Of a stretch of 32,000 bases of DNA, positions 6,650 through 32,000 are shown one piece after another. Source of the DNA: Nitrosopumilus sp. (lineage in GTDB: Archaea > Thermoproteota > Nitrososphaeria > Nitrososphaerales > Nitrosopumilaceae); NCBI GenBank assembly GCA_965197525.1, contig OZ240211.1, positions 506,251 through 538,250 of the forward strand, written 5' to 3'. The position numbers and the translations under genes are program-made. Position 1 is the first letter of the stretch. Every line of letters starts with the position of its first letter. The notes under the pieces are model-generated. The model had not been told where the DNA came from. It saw only the letters and a list, made by a program, of their open reading frames with translations, and made no database searches.

Positions 6650-6908
6650 GGTTCTGTAACATCTTCGAGACCCTTAGTGATGTTATCGCTGGCCTAAATA
6701 TACCATTCAAACTATCCTCTAGGTTTAGGGATAGTCGAGATGACATAGATGAAGCGAAGTCTGGCATTTTTGAGCCAGCGATGTTGGAATCTTGCAGATC
6801 AGTAATCTAGATAGTCGATATGTCAAAGTCGAGTGATAGAGAGAAAACAATTTGTTAATAATACAACAAAATTTCTTTGTTGATAGGTGTCTATAACCAG
6901 ACAGAACC
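6650..6908 (+). mobile_element. Miniature (MITE-like) TnpB-element derivative with no protein coding, retaining the left terminus and the right-end RNA block
   Basis: The left terminus is GGTTCTGTAACATCTTCGAGA (6650-6670) and the right terminus is ...CTATAACCAGACAGAACC (ends 6908). The interior 6716-6908 aligns to the 3' end and right end of the tnpB copies at 23255-23410 and 30529-30731. Confidence 0.6.
6716..6908 (+). ncRNA. Putative omega-RNA (right-end RNA) scaffold, orphan copy
   Basis: It starts at the conserved CCTCTAGGTTTAGGGATAGT block and ends at CAGAACC. It contains the hairpins CTGGC-N8-GCCAG and TTTGTTAATAATACAACAAA. There is no intact ORF on the + strand. Confidence 0.4.
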
Positions 6909-9805: not shown

Positions 9806-10233
9806 ACGATCAAGATAACAGTTGTATCTTATGAAGTTTTGAATTTAGTAGGCAAACTATACGTAGAGTAATTAACTGATACATTGAGGTACTCGATAAT
9901 GAACAGGTTTAAAATATGACACCATATCAACACGGATACTCAGAGAGATCATCTTCGTTGTCCTGTTGCTCGTCTAAAATTCGAAGATGGTATAGTATCG
10001 ATTTGTTGCCAGATGCCATAGCAAATTATGATAGAGAGGGTATAAAAACATGTTGTATGTAGCCATACCCTCCCCCACTTACATTATTAGATATAGATAC
10101 CCCCTCCCCCTCCCCTCCAAATACCCGCCCATTTATCTGTGCATCTATCCATATTCCAGTACATCATCGGGTTCTGTTGGGTTATCGAGATCTAAAACAT
10201 AGAAATAAATACTTTTAATCATTACCATAATCA

Positions 10234-10488
10234 TTGAACAGCACGAACACGCAATATCCAGGATGCGGAAAGAAACTCCAAGAGGATATTATGCAACAAC
10301 ATCATAAATTATCGTGTACTAATTGTGGATTGTTCATTGATATGAACGCATCTCACAAGCTGTCCCCTAGGTTTAGGGATAGTAGAGATGACATACATGA
10401 AGCGCAGTCTGGCACTTTTGAGTCAGCAATGTCGGAACCCAGCACACCGTCGGTAATCCGAATAGTCGATATGTCAAAGTCAGGTTAT
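10234..10488 (+). pseudogene. tnpB: TnpB C-terminal remnant (zinc ribbon and RuvC-III decayed)
   Basis: NSTNTQYPGCGKKLQED...SCTNCGLFIDMNASHKLSPRFRDSR aligns to PRNTSTQCPQCGKRLQED...CNNCGLFMDRDIIAAMNISRKLPPRFRGSR of the intact copy. The first Cys is changed to Tyr and the RDIIAA segment is deleted. Confidence 0.75.
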
Positions 10489-10547
10489 ATGGAGAGGAAC
10501 TTTGTTAATACACAACAAATTTCAGGTCTCGATAACCCAACAGAACC
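10364..10547 (+). ncRNA. Putative omega-RNA scaffold, orphan copy
   Basis: There is high nucleotide identity to 23255-23410, starting at CCCCTAGGTTTAGGGATAGTAGAG. It has the hairpins CTGGC-N8-GTCAG and TTTGTTAATACACAACAAA and ends at CAGAACC. Confidence 0.45.
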
Positions 10548-10550
10548 CTA

Positions 10551-11306
10551 CTATGGAAAAGAGTTCAGGGCAGATACATAGCTTGCAAATCGGTGATTTT
10601 TTGGCTTGACCTTTTTGTCATGGTATTTAACGGCGGATTTTTTGTTTACTGCACCATAAAGACCAAGTGGCGTATATCTAGGCAAGTTGTCGTGCGCCCA
10701 GCCAAGAACTTCATCATTTGGTGCATAATAGTTTACAGTTTTTGTTTTGATGATTGATTTGAATATTTTAGAGTATTGCAGGGATGAGGGTACATCATGG
10801 GTAATTGATGCACCAAAAAAATATACGCTGTTAATAATTCCAGTGTTTGTTTTCTTTCTTGCAAGATACGACAAAGTACTGAGGATTACCTGGGATCCAA
10901 GAGAGTGACCAAGCAGACGAATTCTAGTGCCAGGACTTGCGAGTTTAAAATCTTCAATGAATGCTCCAAGATTTTTACCGTTTTTCTTGGCAATAACTTG
11001 ACCTACTGCCAAAGCATGTTTTTGGTGTTTTGTGCTGTACGCACCTACGGTGTTTGAGTCGTAGCTGAATCCGATGACTGGGTGCATATAGCCTAATCTA
11101 CGTAGTCGAGTTTTGGCCAAGAGAGCTTTGGCAATGGCGCCTGCATTGTTGTTTCTAAAACCATGAATCATTATTACGAGTTCTTTTGAGCCGACTAATC
11201 CCTTAAAACCATTTTTTGGGTAAATACGATACAAGTCATTACGTAGGGCAGTGCCGTCAGATAGGTCATAGCATCCTCTGGTTGTGACTCGTAAAATGGG
11301 TTTCAT
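10551..11306 (-). CDS. Alpha/beta-fold serine hydrolase (DUF900/PGAP1-like)
   Basis: 251 aa with IMIHGF early in the sequence and the nucleophile elbow GHSLGSQV. It has a 4-nt ATGA overlap with the upstream metG stop. Confidence 0.7.
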   Translation of the reverse strand: MKPILRVTTRGCYDLSDGTALRNDLYRIYPKNGFKGLVGSKELVIMIHGFRNNNAGAIAKALLAKTRLRRLGYMHPVIGFSYDSNTVGAYSTKHQKHALAVGQVIAKKNGKNLGAFIEDFKLASPGTRIRLLGHSLGSQVILSTLSYLARKKTNTGIINSVYFFGASITHDVPSSLQYSKIFKSIIKTKTVNYYAPNDEVLGWAHDNLPRYTPLGLYGAVNKKSAVKYHDKKVKPKNHRFASYVSALNSFP

Positions 11307-17486: not shown

Positions 17487-19004
17487 CTATATCAGAAACA
17501 AAAATACCGAGGCAGGTATAATTACGTAATCAGTTTTAGATTCCAAATCGAGTTTTGACAAAACAATCCCGGTTTTTTTCACATCATTACGAAAGCTTGT
17601 TAATCCAGATAATTCCTTGGCGTTAATTTTTTGTCTAAACTTTACTTCGATTGGAATTTCAATATCTCCAACTGAAAGCACGAAATCTACTTCCTTGTTG
17701 TTTTTACTCTTCCAGTAAAAGACATGGTTATGGTATTGAAAAATATGCTTTTTTGTACTCAGAGCAAAAGCTAATCTGATTAGGTGGTCGGCTACTATGC
17801 CTTCCACCATCTTTCCCTTATTTGCCTCGTCTTGTACGTACTGTAAGCTAAGATCAAAACTGTTCATTTGATCTGCCCATCCATTAAAAATATGGAGTAA
17901 AAATGGATCTCGGAAATAAAACTTCCGATCATTTTGGATTCTAGGCATCTTGTTTTTGGTACCGTATAGATACACGATTGATAAGACAAATAGATCATCT
18001 AATGTGTATGCATAGTCTGCCACAGTGTTTGGACTACCTATTGCAGATTCACGGGAGAGATTGGTCCAAGAGGTATGGCTAGTCAAACCATTAATTATTG
18101 TTCTTCCAAATTGCCCAAGTAATGTTTCATTTTTAGATTGGCGACTCCATTCGCCGGTAATGCCATTAAGATATTCATAGTAGATATTTTCGTCTAATAT
18201 GCCGGTCGTGATCTTTTTATTAATTATGTAAGGAGTTCCTCCAGTGAGCATATATTCATTTAACAAATCATTTAATTCATTTTGGTACGCATTAATTTTG
18301 TCAATATTTGAATGTATACTGAGATTAGTAAGATCCAGAAGAATGTTTTTCTTGTTTTGAGTACAATGTAATTTTAGATCTGAATGGAGTGATTTTAGTT
18401 CACTATTTTGCATGCAGACAAACTCAGAAAATTTCATAGGTAGCAAAATCTTATCATAGGTATCTGTTATTGTTCCCCTTCTGTTGGGTAGTCTTTCAGA
18501 TGCATTCTTCAATCCAATTGCTTGTGAACCCGTAGCTACTAGTGTAACATTGGGGATTTTATGCTGATCCACTAACCATTTGATACTTTTCTGCCAATCA
18601 ATTACTGAAGTTGCTTCATCTAAAAAGATATACCGTCTATCGCTTTCTCGCAATTTTGGTGTTAATTTAAAATAAATTTCTATAACATCTACAATATCTT
18701 GTTTTGTATCATCAATGTCCAAAGAGTAATAGCATATCTGCCACGGCGATATTCCTTTGTCTAAAAAATCTTTGATCTGTAACATCAGTAATGTGGTTTT
18801 GCCAATTTGTCTAGGTCCACGTAGCGTATAGACTACGGTGTTAGTTGTACTGAAATCCCACTTGATCTTATCTTTCAGTTCTGGAACATATTTCATCATA
18901 GATTTATGCCACTCGTAGATTTTTTGGTTATCGTTAATCTTGCTTGCATTCTTCCACCAAGGATTCATATCCCTTATTCGGTATTCGCTGACCATACAGG
19001 ACAT
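17487..19004 (-). CDS. AAA+ ATPase of the COG1373 type (AAA domain plus DUF4143-like C-terminus)
   Basis: It has Walker A GPRQIGKTT, Walker B YIFLDEAT and NPWW near the N-terminus. I trimmed the start from the ORF-track GTG (19040, inside the tandem repeat) to the ATG at 19004. The ATG at 18995 is equally possible. Confidence 0.8.
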   Translation of the reverse strand: MSCMVSEYRIRDMNPWWKNASKINDNQKIYEWHKSMMKYVPELKDKIKWDFSTTNTVVYTLRGPRQIGKTTLLMLQIKDFLDKGISPWQICYYSLDIDDTKQDIVDVIEIYFKLTPKLRESDRRYIFLDEATSVIDWQKSIKWLVDQHKIPNVTLVATGSQAIGLKNASERLPNRRGTITDTYDKILLPMKFSEFVCMQNSELKSLHSDLKLHCTQNKKNILLDLTNLSIHSNIDKINAYQNELNDLLNEYMLTGGTPYIINKKITTGILDENIYYEYLNGITGEWSRQSKNETLLGQFGRTIINGLTSHTSWTNLSRESAIGSPNTVADYAYTLDDLFVLSIVYLYGTKNKMPRIQNDRKFYFRDPFLLHIFNGWADQMNSFDLSLQYVQDEANKGKMVEGIVADHLIRLAFALSTKKHIFQYHNHVFYWKSKNNKEVDFVLSVGDIEIPIEVKFRQKINAKELSGLTSFRNDVKKTGIVLSKLDLESKTDYVIIPASVFLFLI

Positions 19005-19180
19005 ACTGAACGGTTCTTTATATATTACAGTCGGATCCACTGAACGGTTCTTTATATATTACAGTCGGATCCACTGAACGGTTCTTTATATATTACAGTC
19101 GGATCCACTGAACGGTTCTTTATATATTACAGTCGGATCCACTGAACGGTTCTTTATATATTACAGTCGGATCCACTGAA
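19005..19180. repeat. Perfect 34-bp tandem repeat, 5 copies plus a 6-nt partial
   Basis: The unit ACTGAACGGTTCTTTATATATTACAGTCGGATCC begins at 19005, 19039, 19073, 19107 and 19141, with a partial at 19175. Each unit contains TTTATATA, which matches the archaeal TATA box. Confidence 0.95.
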
Positions 19181-22057: not shown

Positions 22058-22194
22058 ACGTATTCTTCAGAGAACCCCGATAATATCTGCTACGCTAGCA
22101 AGTAATACGGTTTTATTTGAAAAGGTTTTGTGAAGTTATCGGGAGTTATATGTCATCCCTAAAATGTATAAACCTCTGAACCGTAAGATATTCG

Positions 22195-23388
22195 TTGAGA
22201 GCGATAAAGTCAATATCACAGAAATATGCGCAAAACTCTGATCTAATGGATATGATGGCTATATTCACAAAGATGGTCAATCATTGCATCAAGATAGGGT
22301 TGAAAGAAGACACTCACAATATGAAGAGGTTGTCCATGTTATGTTATCATGAATTACGTAACTATGGCATTTTATCAACATACAAGATATGTGCAATATC
22401 AAGAGCTGCAGGCATATTATCAAACAGAAAACAATCAATCAAACGAGGTGTCAGAATAAGAGACCCAATAGTCAAAAATCCCTTTATGACAAACTGTTAC
22501 GGCATAAAACACAACGGTGCACTACTAACAATCCCATACAAGAAACATAACCCAATCAGCATTTTACTCAACGATCACACCCAAAAAATCCTATCTGATC
22601 CCGCCTTGACGGTGCGCTCGTTTTCATTGACTGCTCTCAACATCAGTCTTTGTGTTTCAAAAACAGTACAAGAGATAGAGTGCACCAAGAAGGTGGGAAT
22701 AGACAGAAACCTAAGAAATGTGACGTGTGGGGACGAGGAAGAGGTGACAGTCTACAAGACAAACAAACTGTTATCCATAAAGGAGAACACAATACACGCC
22801 AGGGCAGGCTTCCACAGAAATGATCGCAGGAAGAAAAATCAGTTCTACAAGGAAAAACAGAGAAGACTGACTAACAGAGCAAAGCAGTACATCCACAGAA
22901 TCTCAAAGGATATAGTAGACAACGCAGTCAAAAACAAGACTGCAATCGTCATGGAAAACCTGAAAGGAATAAGAAAATTGTACCGAAAAGGAAACACTCA
23001 AGGTAACAAGTACAGACGTAGATTGAACGGGTGGCAATTCTACGAGTTACAACGCCAAATAGAATACAAAGCCCAATGGGTCGGACTACCTCCAGTCGAG
23101 ACAGTAGACCCAAGAAACACGAGCACGCAGTGTCCACAATGCGGAAAGAGACTCCAAGAGGACATGCAACAACATCGTAAATTGTCGTGTAATAATTGCG
23201 GTTTGTTTATGGACAGGGACATCATCGCTGCCATGAACATATCACGCAAACTGCCCCCTAGGTTTAGGGGTAGTAGAGGTGACATAGATGAAGCACAGTC
23301 CGGCACTTTTGAGCAGGCGATGACGGAACCCAGCACACCATTGGTAATCCGAATAGTCGATATGTCAAAGTCGAGTTATAGGGGTTAA
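22195..23388 (+). CDS. tnpB: TnpB (IS605 OrfB-family) RNA-guided endonuclease, apparently intact
   Basis: 397 aa with RuvC-I VGIDRN (Asp ~170), RuvC-II VMENLKG (Glu ~254), zinc ribbon CPQCG...CNNCG and RuvC-III MDRDIIAAMNI. It has a TTG start; the paralog uses ATG at the equivalent codon. Confidence 0.92.
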   Translation: MRAIKSISQKYAQNSDLMDMMAIFTKMVNHCIKIGLKEDTHNMKRLSMLCYHELRNYGILSTYKICAISRAAGILSNRKQSIKRGVRIRDPIVKNPFMTNCYGIKHNGALLTIPYKKHNPISILLNDHTQKILSDPALTVRSFSLTALNISLCVSKTVQEIECTKKVGIDRNLRNVTCGDEEEVTVYKTNKLLSIKENTIHARAGFHRNDRRKKNQFYKEKQRRLTNRAKQYIHRISKDIVDNAVKNKTAIVMENLKGIRKLYRKGNTQGNKYRRRLNGWQFYELQRQIEYKAQWVGLPPVETVDPRNTSTQCPQCGKRLQEDMQQHRKLSCNNCGLFMDRDIIAAMNISRKLPPRFRGSRGDIDEAQSGTFEQAMTEPSTPLVIRIVDMSKSSYRG

Positions 23389-23410
23389 CTCCCGATAACT
23401 TCACAGAACC
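23255..23410 (+). ncRNA. Putative omega-RNA (reRNA) scaffold overlapping the tnpB 3' end and the right end
   Basis: This is the nucleotide block most conserved among all four copies, including the non-coding ones. A terminal hairpin GTTATAGGGGTTAACTCCCGATAAC lies just before TTCACAGAACC. The expected guide is the flank 23411-23430. Confidence 0.55.
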
Positions 23411-23438
23411 AAAAGAATAGTAAAAAAGATGAAGATTA

Positions 23439-24759: not shown

Positions 24760-25320
24760 ATGGCTATAAGAAAAACTTCTACAGCTAAACGTAGAACAGC
24801 TAAGAAAACTACTGCAAGAAAGACATCTACAAAGAAAGCAGCTCCTAGACGAAGTGCAGCAAAGAAAGCAGCTCCTAGACGAAGTGCAGCAAAGAAAGCA
24901 GCTCCTAGACGAAGTGCAGCAAAGAAAGCAGCTCCTAGACGAAGTGCAGCAAAGAAAGCAGCTCCTAGACGAAGTGCAGCAAAGAAAGCAGCTCCTAGAC
25001 GAAGTGCAGCAAAGAAAGCAGCTCCTAGACGAAGTGCAGCAAAGAAAGCAGCTCCTAGACGAAGTGCAGCAAAGAAAGCAGCTCCTAGACGAAGTGCAGC
25101 AAAGAAAGCAGCTCCTAGACGAAGTGCAGCAAAGAAAGCAGCTCCTAGACGAAGTGCAGCAAAGAAAGCAGCTCCTAGACGAAGTGCAGCAAAGAAAGCA
25201 GCTCCTAGACGAAGTGCAGCAAAGAAAGCAGCTCCTAGACGAAGTGCAGCAAAGAAAGCAGCTCCTAGACGAAGTGCAGCAAAGAAAGCAGCTCCTAGAC
25301 GAAGTGCAAAGAGACGATAA
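24760..25320 (+). CDS. Highly basic Ala/Lys/Arg/Pro repeat protein (histone H1-tail-like), 16 x AAPRRSAAKK
   Basis: It starts with ATG, and the non-repeat N-terminus MAIRKTSTAKRRTAKKTTARKTSTKK has the same composition as the repeats. The stop comes directly after a degenerate last repeat. Other frames of the repeat are open only because the unit has no stop codon. Confidence 0.6.
   Translation: MAIRKTSTAKRRTAKKTTARKTSTKKAAPRRSAAKKAAPRRSAAKKAAPRRSAAKKAAPRRSAAKKAAPRRSAAKKAAPRRSAAKKAAPRRSAAKKAAPRRSAAKKAAPRRSAAKKAAPRRSAAKKAAPRRSAAKKAAPRRSAAKKAAPRRSAAKKAAPRRSAAKKAAPRRSAAKKAAPRRSAKRR
24838..25308. repeat. Perfect 30-bp tandem repeat, 15 identical units plus a 21-nt partial
   Basis: The unit GCAGCTCCTAGACGAAGTGCAGCAAAGAAA recurs with no mismatch from 24838 to 25287, and the next unit diverges after 21 nt. 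Confidence 0.98.
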
Positions 25321-25549: not shown

Positions 25550-27229
25550 TCAATAAAGATAACTCATTAATTTAATCTCTTCTTCAGTGCTAATGATGTT
25601 TTTAGCTGTTAGAACTTCTAACAGATCCTTAAAAAGTGCTTTTTGCTCACTAGACATTCCACCGGTAGGACCCTTATCACCTGGTAATCCCGGAGGACCT
25701 CGTGGGCCTGGAGGACCTAATGGGCCTTGCTCACCTGGAGGACCTTGCTCACCTAGAGGGCCTAATGGGCCTTTTGAACCTCGCTCTCCTTGAGGACCCT
25801 GAATTCCTTGTGGGCCTTGTGGGCCTTTCTCACCTGCAGGACCGGTAGGACCTCGCTCTCCTTGGGAACCTTGTGGGCCTTGTGGGCCTTTGGCGCCTAC
25901 AGGACCTAGTGGGCCGGTAGAGCCTCGCTCTCCAATCTGTCCGACACGTCCCTTCTCACCTCGCTCACCCTGTATTCCTGGAACGCCTGTCATTCCTTTC
26001 TCACCTGGAGGACCTTGTGGGCCTTGTGGACCAGTCTCACCTTGTGGACCATCAACGCCCTTGTTTCCTTTCTCACCGGGGGGACCAGTTGGACCTGCTA
26101 GTCCTTTTGGACCTTTGTCGCCTTGTGGACCCGTAACACCTGTTAATCCTTTTGAGCCTGTGGCGCCCTGCGGGCCTTGTAGACCCTTCTCACCTGGAGA
26201 ACCTTTGTCACCAGTTGGGCCTTTCTCACCCGTAGCACCTTGTGGGCCAAGTAAACCTTGTGGACCTTTGTCGCCTTTGATTCCAACAGGACCTGTTAAT
26301 CCTTTTGAACCCACAGGACCGGGGGAACCTTGCGGACCTTTGTCGCCCGGAGAACCGAGTTGGCCTGTAGGGCCTTTTGAACCCTTATCCCCCATATGAC
26401 CATGAGGACCTTTGTCACCTATAGGGCCTTTGTCACCAGTTGGACCCTTGGTGCCCACAGGACCTGCAGGACCTTGCAGTCCTTTGTCACCCTGAATTCC
26501 AGGAAAGCCAGTTGGGCCCTTTTCACCAGCAGGTCCAGGTGGACCGGTAAGTCCTTTGTCACCAGGCATGCCCTGTGGGCCTTTGTCACCCTTATCGCCA
26601 ATAACCCCGCGTAAACCAAGAGGGCCTTTGTCGCCAAGAGGACCTTTGTCACCTGGAGGACCACGCTCACCTTGCACACCTGAAGGTCCAGATGGACCTT
26701 TGTCACCTTTAGAACCCATACGTCCAGAGGATCCAGTAGAAACGGCAATATCAGATGAGCCTTCAGGCGTGGATGGTTTTTGTCGTCCAGATGAGGGTTT
26801 GGTAATAGTAGAAGAGGAGGAGGAGGAAGAGGAAGATGCAGGAGGAACAATAGACATGCCAGATTTAACATCATGTGTAGCAGAAGCATCTGCATCCTTG
26901 CTGGATTTATCAGTTTTTAGAGCCTTCTTTTTCAAAGAGACCTCAAATACAGTATGTGCAGAAGAGAACGAATCATATGCGACAATCCAAATTTTATCTA
27001 GTGCGTCAATTGACGGAGGCAGTGGATTTAGTGCAGACCCCAGCGTTTCAAAAAACACGCCATCGCGTACGCGTAGATGAAAGTGGTCTTTCCAGAGATA
27101 TTTGAACTGTTTTGACATTATGGAATCATCAGTAGGCTTGGATGTTGTGATAGCAATTTCAGTCTCATAGACTCCAGGCTGGGTTATTGGCGCAGGTCCG
27201 CTTACCTCTAACTTTGATGCAGATGACAC
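25550..27229 (-). CDS. Collagen-like triple-helix repeat protein
   Basis: 559 aa. Residues 169-522 (nt 25664-26725) are about 118 uninterrupted Gly-X-Y triplets (GDKGPQG, GERGPPG and similar). The 168-aa N-terminal non-collagen domain ends in a Ser9 linker, and there is a 37-aa C-terminal helical tail. It has a GTG start and no in-frame upstream ATG. Confidence 0.85.
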
Positions 27230-30387: not shown

Positions 30388-30528
30388 TGTAAAGAAAATC
30401 CATAGAGCGGTTATAAATTTTTAAGAATAGGATATTATTGACTAAAAAATTTGTAAATATACAGAATATTCCTATTTTAACGCATAATACTCAAACATCC
30501 ATATCATATTTTGAAGATATTGTATAGG

Positions 30529-30731
30529 GGTTCTGTCTAATCATAGTGAGATAAAATCTAAACTCCGAAAAAAAGTTTTGTTGTAATATTAACAAAGTGT
30601 CTTTTTCCCATCAGTTGACTTTGACATATCGACTATTTGGATTACCGGTGTACAGGGTTCCAACATCGCTAACTCAAAAACATTAGACTTCGCTTCACTT
30701 ATGCCAACTCTACTATCCCTAAACCTAGGGG
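30529..30731 (-). ncRNA. Putative omega-RNA scaffold of the frameshifted element
   Basis: The reverse complement starts CCCCTAGGTTTAGGGATAGTAGAG and ends GATTAGACAGAACC. It has the compensated hairpin CTAAT-N8-GTTAG and the TTTGTTAATATTACAACAAA hairpin. Confidence 0.45.
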
Positions 30732-31792
30732 ACAGTTTGTGAGGTATATTTATAGCAGCAATAACGTCTCTGTCCATAAACAACCCACAATTATTGCACG
30801 ACTTTTTACGATGGTGTTGCAAGTCCTCTTGGAGTTTCTTTCCGCATCTTGGACATTGCGAGCTCGTGTTTTTTGGGTCTACAAATTTTACTGGAAGCCC
30901 TACCCATTGGGCTTTGTATTGTATTTGTCTTTGAAATTCAAAGAATTGCCATCCGTTTAATCTACGTCTGTACTTGTTACCTTGACCATTGCCTTTCTTG
31001 TATAATTTTCTTATTCCTTTTAGATCTTCTAGAATAATCATGGTTTTGTTTTTGACTGCTCGTTCTACAATATCTTTTGAGATTCTATGTATGTATTGTT
31101 TGGTTCTTTGAGACATTCTTCTCTGCTTTATCTTCCAGAACTGATCTTTCTTTCTACGGTCATTTCTATGAAATCCAGCTCTAGCGTGTATTGTATTTTC
31201 TTTAATTGATAGTAATTTATTTGTCTTGTATACTATAACTTTTTTCTCATTCCCACAAGTGACATTTCTAAGATTTCTGTCTAATTCCTACCGGTACATT
31301 AGTACATTCTATTTCTTCAACTTTTTTTGAAACACAAAAACTGATACTTTTTTCATTCATAATAAATGATCTTATATTTAAATCAGGATTAGATAGTATT
31401 TTTTGAGTGTGATCATTTAATAATATGTTTATGGGGTTTCTATTTTTGTATGGTATTGTCATTAAACTACCATTATGTTTGATACCATAACAATTTGTAA
31501 TAAATAACTTTTTTACAACTAGGTCTCTTACTGTAACACCACGCTTTATTGACTGTTTTCTGTTAGATAGTATGCCAACAGCACGTGATATTGCATTTAT
31601 TTTATATGAACCTAAAACATCATAGTCTCTAAATTCATGATAACAAAGTGGAGACAACTGTTTCAAACTATGTACGTCTTCTCTTAACCCTATTCTAATG
31701 GAACGATTTACCATTTTTATGAATATCTCCATCAACTCTTTTAGATCAGAATTTGGTGTATGTTTCTGTGTTATTGATTTTAATGCCTTCAT
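30589..31792 (-). pseudogene. tnpB: tnpB disrupted by a single-nucleotide insertion just before the RuvC-I Asp codon
   Basis: The N-terminal ORF (31268-31792) and the C-terminal frame (open from 31281 to 30589) both align to the intact copy. GGAATTAGACAG here corresponds to GGAATAGACAG in the intact copy, so there is one extra base at plus-strand 31283/31284. Downstream E, Zn-ribbon and DRD motifs are intact. Confidence 0.85.
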
Positions 31793-32000
31793 ACTACTAG
31801 AACATGTTTTATTTTTTTAATAAAGGTACTTTTTTTGAAATTATTTTTATTCTTTGCCACTTGATAATCCAATAAAACCATTATTTGTTATTGTAAATCT
31901 AGATAAAAATTTATCTCCCTATAAATAGACAGAACACTGTATAGGTAAGTATTAATTGTTTATGCTACAAGAATACAATATGCAAAAGGCGACCATAGCA

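Follow-up and report, generated by a model that had tools for sequence, protein, structure and literature searches.

The window analysed here is a stretch of 32,000 nucleotides (nt) of Nitrosopumilus sp. (GenBank assembly GCA_965197525.1, contig OZ240211.1, positions 506,251 to 538,250 of the forward strand), with a G+C content of 39% and a set of housekeeping genes (EF-2, MetRS, CysRS, ArgRS, a DRG-type GTPase, AdoHcy hydrolase and KARI). It holds four copies (A–D) of a mobile element that encodes the nuclease TnpB and has terminal inverted repeats (TIRs) and, in many members of its family, 8-bp target-site duplications. Its nearest relatives in the genome collection belong to Nitrosopumilus metagenome-assembled genomes (MAGs). 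TnpB is the only open reading frame (ORF) of these elements, which are 1226-1408 bp long. The four copies are as follows:

Copy A, 22124-23410 (+): full-length element of 1287 bp with an intact tnpB; its limits match the 1291-bp unit of the OZ245003.1 copies described below, at 91-94% nucleotide identity.
Copy B, 10170-10547 (+): derivative of 378 bp resembling a miniature inverted-repeat transposable element (MITE), with left TIR, tnpB 3' fragment, omega-RNA region and right TIR.
Copy C, 30529-31937 (-): full-length element whose tnpB is split between two ORFs (31268-31792 and 30589-31116).
Copy D, 6650-6908 (+): MITE-like derivative of 259 bp, with left tip, omega-RNA region and right TIR.

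Copy C is 72-80% identical to copy A at the nucleotide level, and its left end, GTGTTCTG, has one base extra. Copies B and D are short and non-coding, with TIRs related to those of a longer element, as is characteristic of MITEs, and both have kept the left tip along with the last ≈200 nt and the right TIR. A preliminary description of this DNA had listed copies A, B and C, all of which are real, but copy D was missing from the list. The TIR pair given there for copy B is likewise real, but according to the family consensus this copy extends over 10170-10547, which trims one base from either end. At 10100-10119, ≈50 bp upstream of copy B, there is a C-rich simple run (ccccctccccctcccctcc).

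Termini, duplications and target motif

A repeat search of the window recovered the TIR pairs of copies A, B and C in the places previously claimed for them, with the common tips GGTTCTG...CAGAACC. The pair of copy A (22124-22148 and 23386-23410) spans 25 nt and is 96% complementary (24/25); the chance of at least 24/25 at one fixed position pair is ≈2e-13. The pair of copy B (10162-10197 and 10520-10555; 36 nt, 86% complementary) includes a 22/22 core and matches at 24/26 positions when scored as a TIR, and that of copy C (30530-30564 and 31901-31935) spans 35 nt and is 80% complementary. The ends of copy A read:

22124-22148 (+): left TIR, GGTTTTGTGAAGTTATCGGGAGTTA, with C5 changed to T relative to the family.
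23386-23410 (+): right TIR, ...TAACTCCCGATAACTTCACAGAACC.

The window copies were compared with loci of relatives, which are designated by L-numbers (L002, L005 and so on). TIRs of 23-30 bp, of the form GGTTCTGT...ACAGAACC, are present in every subfamily, including those from Nitrosopumilales, Nitrososphaerales, Bathyarchaeia and one Thermoplasmatota MAG. The limits of the element were checked in a related genome, OZ245003.1, the complete 2.5-Mb chromosome of a Nitrosopumilus MAG, which holds at least 16 copies. Most of these share 95-99% identity over the 1291 bp that begin precisely with GGTTCTG and finish with CAGAACC, and are unrelated to one another outside this stretch. The identity stops at these tips, which therefore fix the exact termini and bear out the limits drawn from the window. 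The element is multicopy and recently active.

Positions 1-8 of the TIR (GGTTCTGT) are nearly invariant. Positions 9-25 vary among subfamilies, yet match within each copy. Across 16 subfamily representatives, 90.5% of the left/right cells are complementary, with changes on both sides at 17 of the 25 positions (71 cells); none of 500 shuffles reached the observed value, and slid controls gave 31-43%. The two ends thus co-evolve, as had been proposed. G:U-type cells account for 8 of the 46 non-Watson–Crick cells (17%), which is their chance share, and because there is no G:U excess, the constraint looks like a symmetry at the level of DNA rather than RNA pairing. Fifteen of the 16 representatives have the right tip CAGAACC (L024 has CAGAATC), and this tip is almost never altered, whereas left tips are often decayed (TGTTCTG, ACGTCTG, GGCGCTG, AGCGCTC). 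This difference is consistent with an additional constraint acting on the right end.

Of ≈30 copies, 15 lie between perfect 8-bp target-site duplications, among them window copy C, L024 and L275; near-perfect duplications (7/8) were seen at L006 and at one P0340 site. An 8/8 duplication has a chance of 2e-5 per junction. The duplicated sequence is variable; examples are GGTTTATT, CAATACAG, CTAGTATC, CTACAGGA, CAGAAATC, GAAATAAC, AAACCTAA and TTATAGAT. Duplications are also present in strains from culture or enrichment, namely N. ureiphilus (CP026995; ACTATTCG) and N. okcheonensis (LT841358; GAAAACCG) and in distant lineages: Bathyarchaeia (L018, L022), Nitrososphaerales (L020 and, with a 2-nt offset, L017) and the Thermoplasmatota MAG copy L024 (GGGCGACA), the protein of which is 36% identical. 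The relevant flanks in the window are:

31938-31945 (-): left 8-bp duplication of copy C, CCTATACA, preceded by TTA.
30521-30528 (-): right 8-bp duplication of copy C, CCTATACA, an 8/8 match.
22116-22123 (+): left flank of copy A, in which AAAA follows TTTG; on the right, the flank begins AAAAGAAT.

No intact duplication was found at window copies A, B and D. For copy A, a 4-nt deletion at the left junction may explain the loss. Exact-protein searches with its TnpB and with the DRG GTPase and a HAD hydrolase of the window had no match, and an empty allele of this copy was not found.

Seventeen sites, rebuilt from copies with verified duplications, define the target motif. Immediately 5' of the left duplication stands TTG or TTA: all 17 sites have T at position -2, position -1 is G (11 sites) or A (6 sites), and 14/17 have T at position -3, with binomial P values of 4e-14 for TTG and 6e-17 for TTR (R = G or A). 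No mirrored motif was present beyond the right duplication at the same sites. The motif is thus found solely on the left-end side, and insertion, or the survival of insertions, is therefore orientation-specific. The exceptions are GAT in L024 and GAT also in L009 and L012, both of which have aberrant left tips. In the window, copy A has TTA directly 5' of the left 8 bp and TTTG 4 nt nearer the element, and copy D has TTG 8 nt upstream of its left tip.

Several loci show rearrangements or remnants around the element. L002 and L005 (OZ245003.1, ≈1.32 and 1.45 Mb) lie in opposite orientation ≈130 kb apart with swapped flanks (TAGAAACT and TTATGTTA), which fits either homologous recombination (a ≈130-kb inversion) or intramolecular replicative transposition. 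The P0340 element (L276-L285; 1348 bp) has a TIR of 26/26 over the 26 nt scored and 30/30 against the reverse complement of its right end. Its two left and two right flanks occur in all four combinations on ten metagenome contigs, reflecting either a recombination polymorphism between two copies or repeat-induced assembly chimeras. N. okcheonensis was considered as an empty site for P0340 and set aside: the right flank aligns and the left has ≈230 nt extra, so that the comparison is not clean. L009 and L012 belong to different subfamilies and share, near position 2929, the same left flank (...GAAAAGATTTCGTATA) with the tip ACGTCTG in place of GGTTCTG and no duplication; a 1.39-kb DDE_Tnp_1 element (TIR CATGTCAGTAGTTCCCAGATG) lies ≈60 bp upstream in L012. 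L003 contains a solitary right-end-like remnant at 1021-1081 (GGTCTCGATAACCTAACA followed by ...TAATCCAACAGAACC), with no left end or omega-RNA region nearby. IS630-family elements (HTH plus DDE_3, G+C above that of the host) are inserted in TnpB elements at L010 1894-2999 and L016 1735-2999, where they disrupt tnpB and spare the outer TIRs; the one in L010 has a TA duplication, and the 8-bp duplication around the host element is intact.

TnpB and the omega-RNA-like region

The coding and RNA features of copy A are arranged as follows:

22195-23388 (+): tnpB ORF, 397 aa, with a TTG start (ATG at the same position in copy C).
23201-23410 (+): omega-RNA-like structured 3' region, ending at the element tip.
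23411-23430 (+): putative guide segment, the flank read through from the right end, as expected from TnpB biology (PMC13565253).

The tnpB stop lies 22 bp from the right tip. The protein matches Pfam Cas12f1-like_TNB (E 7e-21, 74.5 bits against a cut-off of 26.3) and NCBIfam guided_TnpB (125.4 bits against a cut-off of 100). Among 15 relatives, down to 37% identity, the RuvC residues D170 and D342 and the cysteines of the C4 zinc finger, in two CxxC pairs (C313, C316, C332 and C335), are invariant, and the RuvC residue E254 is kept in at least 90%; the protein is accordingly predicted to be catalytically intact. It also scored 99 bits against the NCBIfam model for CRISPR Cas12f2 (cut-off 450), 63 bits for IS200-type TnpB and 52 bits for IS607-type TnpB. 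The family comprises 1593 TnpB clusters at 90% identity (E up to 1e-20) and 112 representatives at 50% identity (E up to 1e-30). Bacterial matches with 24-41% identity were rejected as members; they are IS607-type, stand beside a MerR/serine-recombinase-like gene and fall outside this clade. A TnpB profile scan of viral contigs found relatives of at most 42% identity over partial matches only, and tblastn against plasmids returned only TnpBs of at most ≈30% identity.

The last ≈210 nt of the element align across the clade. RNAalifold predicted 24 pairs from 12 diverse copies, 20 of them with compensatory changes. The terminal hairpin has its 3' arm inside the right TIR and is followed by ...ACAGAACC. 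No Rfam family was matched and no tRNA gene was found in the window. By analogy with characterised TnpB systems, the 3' region would be an omega-RNA scaffold with a guide starting at the first flanking base, and the guide would therefore begin with the right copy of the duplication. That both short derivatives, B and D, keep this region suggests that the RNA matters for their persistence. Read directly, the left end has no consistent hairpin across the family, in contrast to the right end with its subterminal hairpin. A TATA-like TTATAT within the left TIR suggests that transcription may start downstream of it.

If the guide starts at the right end, TTR occupies the place required of the transposon-adjacent motif (TAM) of a TnpB, and we infer that it serves as one. 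Its one-sidedness may reflect a transposase whose asymmetric choice of target has evolved together with the TAM, as it has in IS605 and IS607 (PMC13565253), or the preferential retention and drive of TAM-flanked insertions by TnpB.

Candidate modes of transposition

The element is probably, though by no means certainly, a non-autonomous TIR transposon that carries TnpB and omega-RNA as cargo and is moved in trans by a DDE-type transposase, likely an IS6-like one. Movement in trans by a TIR-recognising transposase had already been suggested in the preliminary description; it is the best-supported reading and has gained strength from the 8-bp duplications and the IS6/IS26-like termini. Insertion would take place by a staggered 8-bp cut-and-join, of the kind that DDE (RNase-H-fold) transposases carry out, through an enzyme acting on the 23-30 bp inverted ends with their IS6/IS26-consensus tips (GGTTCTGT...). 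This enzyme would be supplied in trans, because the element encodes no transposase. The right TIR would at the same time supply the final ≈25 nt of the omega-RNA scaffold, which would make the right duplication copy plus flank the guide. The empty allele would then read TTR + 8 bp + right flank, that is, a TAM-like motif followed by a guide match. TnpB would cut this allele, and homology-directed repair would put the element back in, or into sister copies. The donor would be protected, with ACC preceding the guide match at the right end and only 8 nt of match at the left junction. With their ends and omega-RNA retained, the short derivatives B and D would be served by both proteins in trans.

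The likeness to IS6 lies in the ends. The IS6/IS26 TIR consensus is GGTTCTGTTGCAAA, with G1, G2 and G7 conserved and an 8-bp duplication (Harmer & Hall 2019, PMC6807381). The family motif is 'GG ... cTGTt', and archaeal members have GG tips, G7, 8-bp duplications and TIRs of at least 18 bp (PMC6807381; Varani et al. 2021, PMC7986276). The tip described here, GGTTCTGT, equals the consensus tip, a likeness that rests on the published consensus. The agreement extends to GGTTCTGT(TGCA), with GG, G7, the cTGTt motif and the 8-bp duplication, and reaches 12/14 in the L182 element (GGTTCTGTTGCATT). All 16 subfamily representatives have G2, and 15 have G7. IS6 elements differ in being mostly 700-890 bp long and in encoding an H-HTH plus DDE transposase of the PF13610 type, whereas the present elements measure ≈1.23-1.41 kb and encode TnpB only. 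Nor is IS6 known for an asymmetric target motif, unlike the orientation-specific TTR seen here.

Several observations weigh against this account. As had been noted previously, the window contains no tnpA or serine recombinase gene: Y1 (HUH), serine-recombinase and DDE transposase genes were all absent among the ORFs scanned, namely the large ones and the main smaller candidates. Y1 TnpA was likewise absent from the flanks examined around related copies. A transposase with GGTTCTG ends was not found in the window, in ≈40 archaeal loci or in seven genomic contexts; a tblastn search of the window and 54 loci (≈350 kb) with an approximate IS26 transposase gave a best E of 0.76; and DDE_Tnp_IS240 was absent among annotated neighbours in the seven contexts. 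Other insertion sequences in the Nitrosopumilus MAG (IS630 in L010 and L016, IS66-like in L180, DDE_Tnp_1 in L012) have different ends and were rejected as partners on account of their unrelated TIRs. Short IS6 transposases do not figure in the ISsaga inventory of N. okcheonensis, in which a copy flanked by a perfect duplication is present (Krupovic 2019 Table S3). Moreover, the orientation-specific target motif is not explained by a symmetric DDE transpososome alone, and the subfamily-specific inner parts of the TIRs would need a tolerant transposase or multiple ones. In separate scans, the 20-mer GGTTCTGYGAAGTTATCGGG gave five unrelated matches in metagenomes, and a 15-mer scan of viral contigs returned only single-match stretches, which were taken as chance.

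The published inventories offer one possible lead. True IS6-family transposases in Thaumarchaeota include six 636-bp ISNamo12-like ones in N. viennensis and ISPfu-like ones in Nitrocosmicus, and many ORFs of ≈1.07-1.47 kb, with fragments of 219-879 bp, are labelled 'IS6, ISDsp3_aa1-like' in thaumarchaea (Krupovic 2019 Table S3). ISDsp3, an IS6 outlier in ISfinder from Dehalococcoides sp. BAV1, is 1456 bp long with a TIR of 28/36 and an 8-bp duplication; its outlier 'transposase' of 319 aa lacks an intact zinc finger, and the element reportedly has a passenger ORF (Harmer & Hall 2019 Table 4, PMC6807381). ISDsp3 resembles the present elements in dimensions (length, TIR and 8-bp duplication). 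A truncation of the window TnpB at about residue 319 would fall between the two CxxC pairs. The one family member that could be mapped to the inventory, P0317 (1628495-1629691), carries the ISsaga label IS607-TnpB and not ISDsp3-like. ISDsp3 and the ISDsp3-like genes may represent the long IS6-like transposase that is missing, or else TnpB elements filed wrongly under IS6.

We considered the possibility that the enzyme is a DDE transposase of another family with 8-bp duplications and GG-tipped TIRs. Candidate families are ISL3, IS1595/ISH4 and ISH6. This alternative, which (with ISL3 as an example) also counts as an objection to an IS6-like enzyme, seems unlikely but deserves to be taken seriously: the IS6 consensus is matched over the first 8-12 nt only, the TIRs of other families can likewise have G2 and G7 (Harmer & Hall), and ISL3- and IS1595-labelled rows are listed for thaumarchaeal genomes (Krupovic 2019 Table S3). 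However, the match GGTTCTGT(TGCA) is to the IS6/IS26 consensus in particular, and several of the published ISL3 rows look like conserved multi-gene blocks rather than insertion sequences.

A more radical alternative, and a doubtful one, is that the element is autonomous. TnpB, itself a RuvC nuclease of the RNase-H fold, would integrate the element 3' of TTG/TTA with an 8-bp duplication, or would act as a TAM-reading selector for a host activity. Across lineages at 36-95% identity, TnpB and omega-RNA alone are encoded; the TAM-like TTR abuts the duplication in one orientation, which a symmetric transposase does not predict; and no partner transposase was found in the loci and neighbourhoods examined. 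In N. okcheonensis, all 13 IS607-type rows are TnpB (aa2), with no recombinase and, as noted above, no short IS6 transposase (Krupovic 2019 Table S3). Against this, strand transfer by TnpB or Cas12 is without precedent, and the search for a partner is very incomplete, covering loci and neighbourhoods rather than whole genomes. In characterised TnpBs the cut falls 15-21 bp away from the TAM rather than at 0 and 8 bp, which also counts against autonomy. Furthermore, 'IS6' ISDsp3-like ORFs are present in the same genomes, and the TTR bias can come from retention by homing. The specific scheme in which TAM recognition by TnpB/omega-RNA picks TTG/TTA, and TnpB or a recruited host enzyme carries out TIR-dependent integration with an 8-bp stagger, is slightly more doubtful still. 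If autonomy were true, it would mean transposition by an RNA-guided-nuclease lineage without a conventional transposase, and would explain the long-standing puzzle of mobile archaeal tnpB-only elements.

It is quite improbable that the complementarity of the two ends serves RNA or RNA–DNA pairing of the left end with the 3' region of the omega-RNA, a role that the preliminary description had offered as an option and that found no support. The right TIR does lie in the omega-RNA scaffold, and its inner half forms an arm of the covarying hairpin. However, the complementarity reaches the extreme tips and is bracketed by duplications, G:U-type cells occur at the chance share given above, and the TTATAT in the left TIR suggests a transcription start downstream of that repeat.

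Hardly credible is an ordinary IS200/IS605 (IS1341-group) or IS607 element with a Y1 or serine TnpA elsewhere, the TIRs being subterminal hairpin or guide elements: TnpB is the usual passenger there, ISsaga labels P0317 as an IS607 TnpB, the closest bacterial relatives adjoin MerR-HTH/serine-recombinase-like genes and the right end has a subterminal hairpin, but the duplications are of variable 8-bp sequence, whereas both families are described without duplications or TIRs (PMC13565253, PMC4810608 and PMC6188088). A consistent hairpin is missing from the left end, whereas IS200/IS605 elements have subterminal hairpins at both; the inverted repeat extends as far as the tips, and the right end finishes in CC, not in the GG of IS607. 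The Y1 and serine mechanisms are excluded for this clade because they make no duplication and use no TIRs. A linked Y1 tnpA, which the preliminary description had named as grounds for giving up its view of the ends, has become a moot point, because the duplications are present and Y1 or serine transposition makes none.

Relation to known TnpB systems and other features of the window

The preliminary description rightly called TIRs atypical for IS200/IS605 and IS607, since the 23-30 bp TIRs reach the tips and those families have none. Its statement that movement in trans and the pairing role would both be unusual for a prokaryotic TnpB was too strong: inverted terminal repeats and trans-moved solo TnpBs are already described in PMC10691335. 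That work defines six DDE-associated TnpB branches (DDE-1 to DDE-6), each of which has inverted terminal repeats. Its solo TnpBs have ends near-identical to those of transposase-bearing elements, and their movement is presumed to take place in trans (Altae-Tran et al. 2023, PMC10691335). Textbook accounts and reviews, one of them from 2026, treat TnpB elements as lacking TIRs and target duplications (PMC13565253, PMC4810608). The principle that DDE transposons with inverted ends can carry TnpB, and that solo copies can be mobilised in trans, is therefore already known. The present elements share with those branches a TnpB and omega-RNA inside inverted repeats and a tnpB 3' end less than 250 bp from the transposon end. 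They differ in their IS6-like ends and 8-bp duplications, in forming an archaeal clade and in that no transposase-bearing version was found among them. IS630, ISL2 and IS1031 make 2-3 bp duplications. These three are the DDE families named for TnpB in PMC13565253 and PMC10691335.

With the TnpB-only elements of the IS200/IS605 IS1341 group and of IS607, the present elements share a lone tnpB, a 3' omega-RNA, a guide in the right flank, a short T-rich left-flank motif and short non-coding derivatives. Unlike them, they have TIRs and duplications; IS1341-group and IS607 elements have neither, and their ends are asymmetric hairpins or repeats (PMC13565253, PMC4810608). Another parallel is Fanzor, the eukaryotic TnpB, which is likewise an RNA-guided nuclease cargo in duplication-making DDE-type TIR transposons that are often non-autonomous (Bao & Jurka 2013, PMC3627910; PMC13565253). 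In Fanzor, however, the 5' duplication is read as part of the TAM (PMC13565253), whereas here the variable 8-bp duplication lies inside the guide match, the motif stands before the duplication and the hosts are prokaryotes.

A full-text search of the literature on TnpB with Nitrosopumilus or Thaumarchaeota found nothing relevant. What looks new is the combination of IS6-type termini with an 8-bp duplication, the breadth across archaeal phyla with no autonomous member found, and the geometry of TAM, duplication and guide. A TAM-like motif just outside a variable 8-bp duplication, with the duplication forming the first 8 nt of the guide match, was not found described. It shows how an RNA-guided homing nuclease can fit onto a duplication-making transposon and, together with the Fanzor parallel, supports the idea that the OMEGA module (short for obligate mobile element-guided activity) can pass between transposon types. 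The strict TTG orientation poses the question of whether TnpB shapes the survival of insertions or the insertion site itself. The missing transposase points either to an unrecognised IS6-like partner in these genomes or to a novel way of moving. With their compact size (≈370-400 aa), defined omega-RNA and probable 3-nt TAM, these TnpBs are also candidates for genome editors.

Apart from the element, the window contains two perfect tandem arrays. The first, at 19005-19180, has 5.2 copies of a 34-nt unit (ACTGAACGGTTCTTTATATATTACAGTCGGATCC) at 100% identity, with a TATA-like TTTATATA in each unit, and lies at or just upstream of the 5' end of a minus-strand AAA_14/DUF4143 ATPase ORF (17487-19040). 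The second, at 24830-25308, has 16 copies of a 30-nt unit at 100% identity and falls within overlapping ORFs on both strands, of which the plus-strand ORF 24760-25320 matches the histone-H1-like HC2 family. Next to it, 25550-27229 (-) encodes a 559-aa protein that consists largely of collagen triple-helix (G-X-Y) repeats (Pfam Collagen, E 1e-59). Such a protein is out of the ordinary for an archaeon; it may be in keeping with life in association with a host, like that of sponge symbionts.

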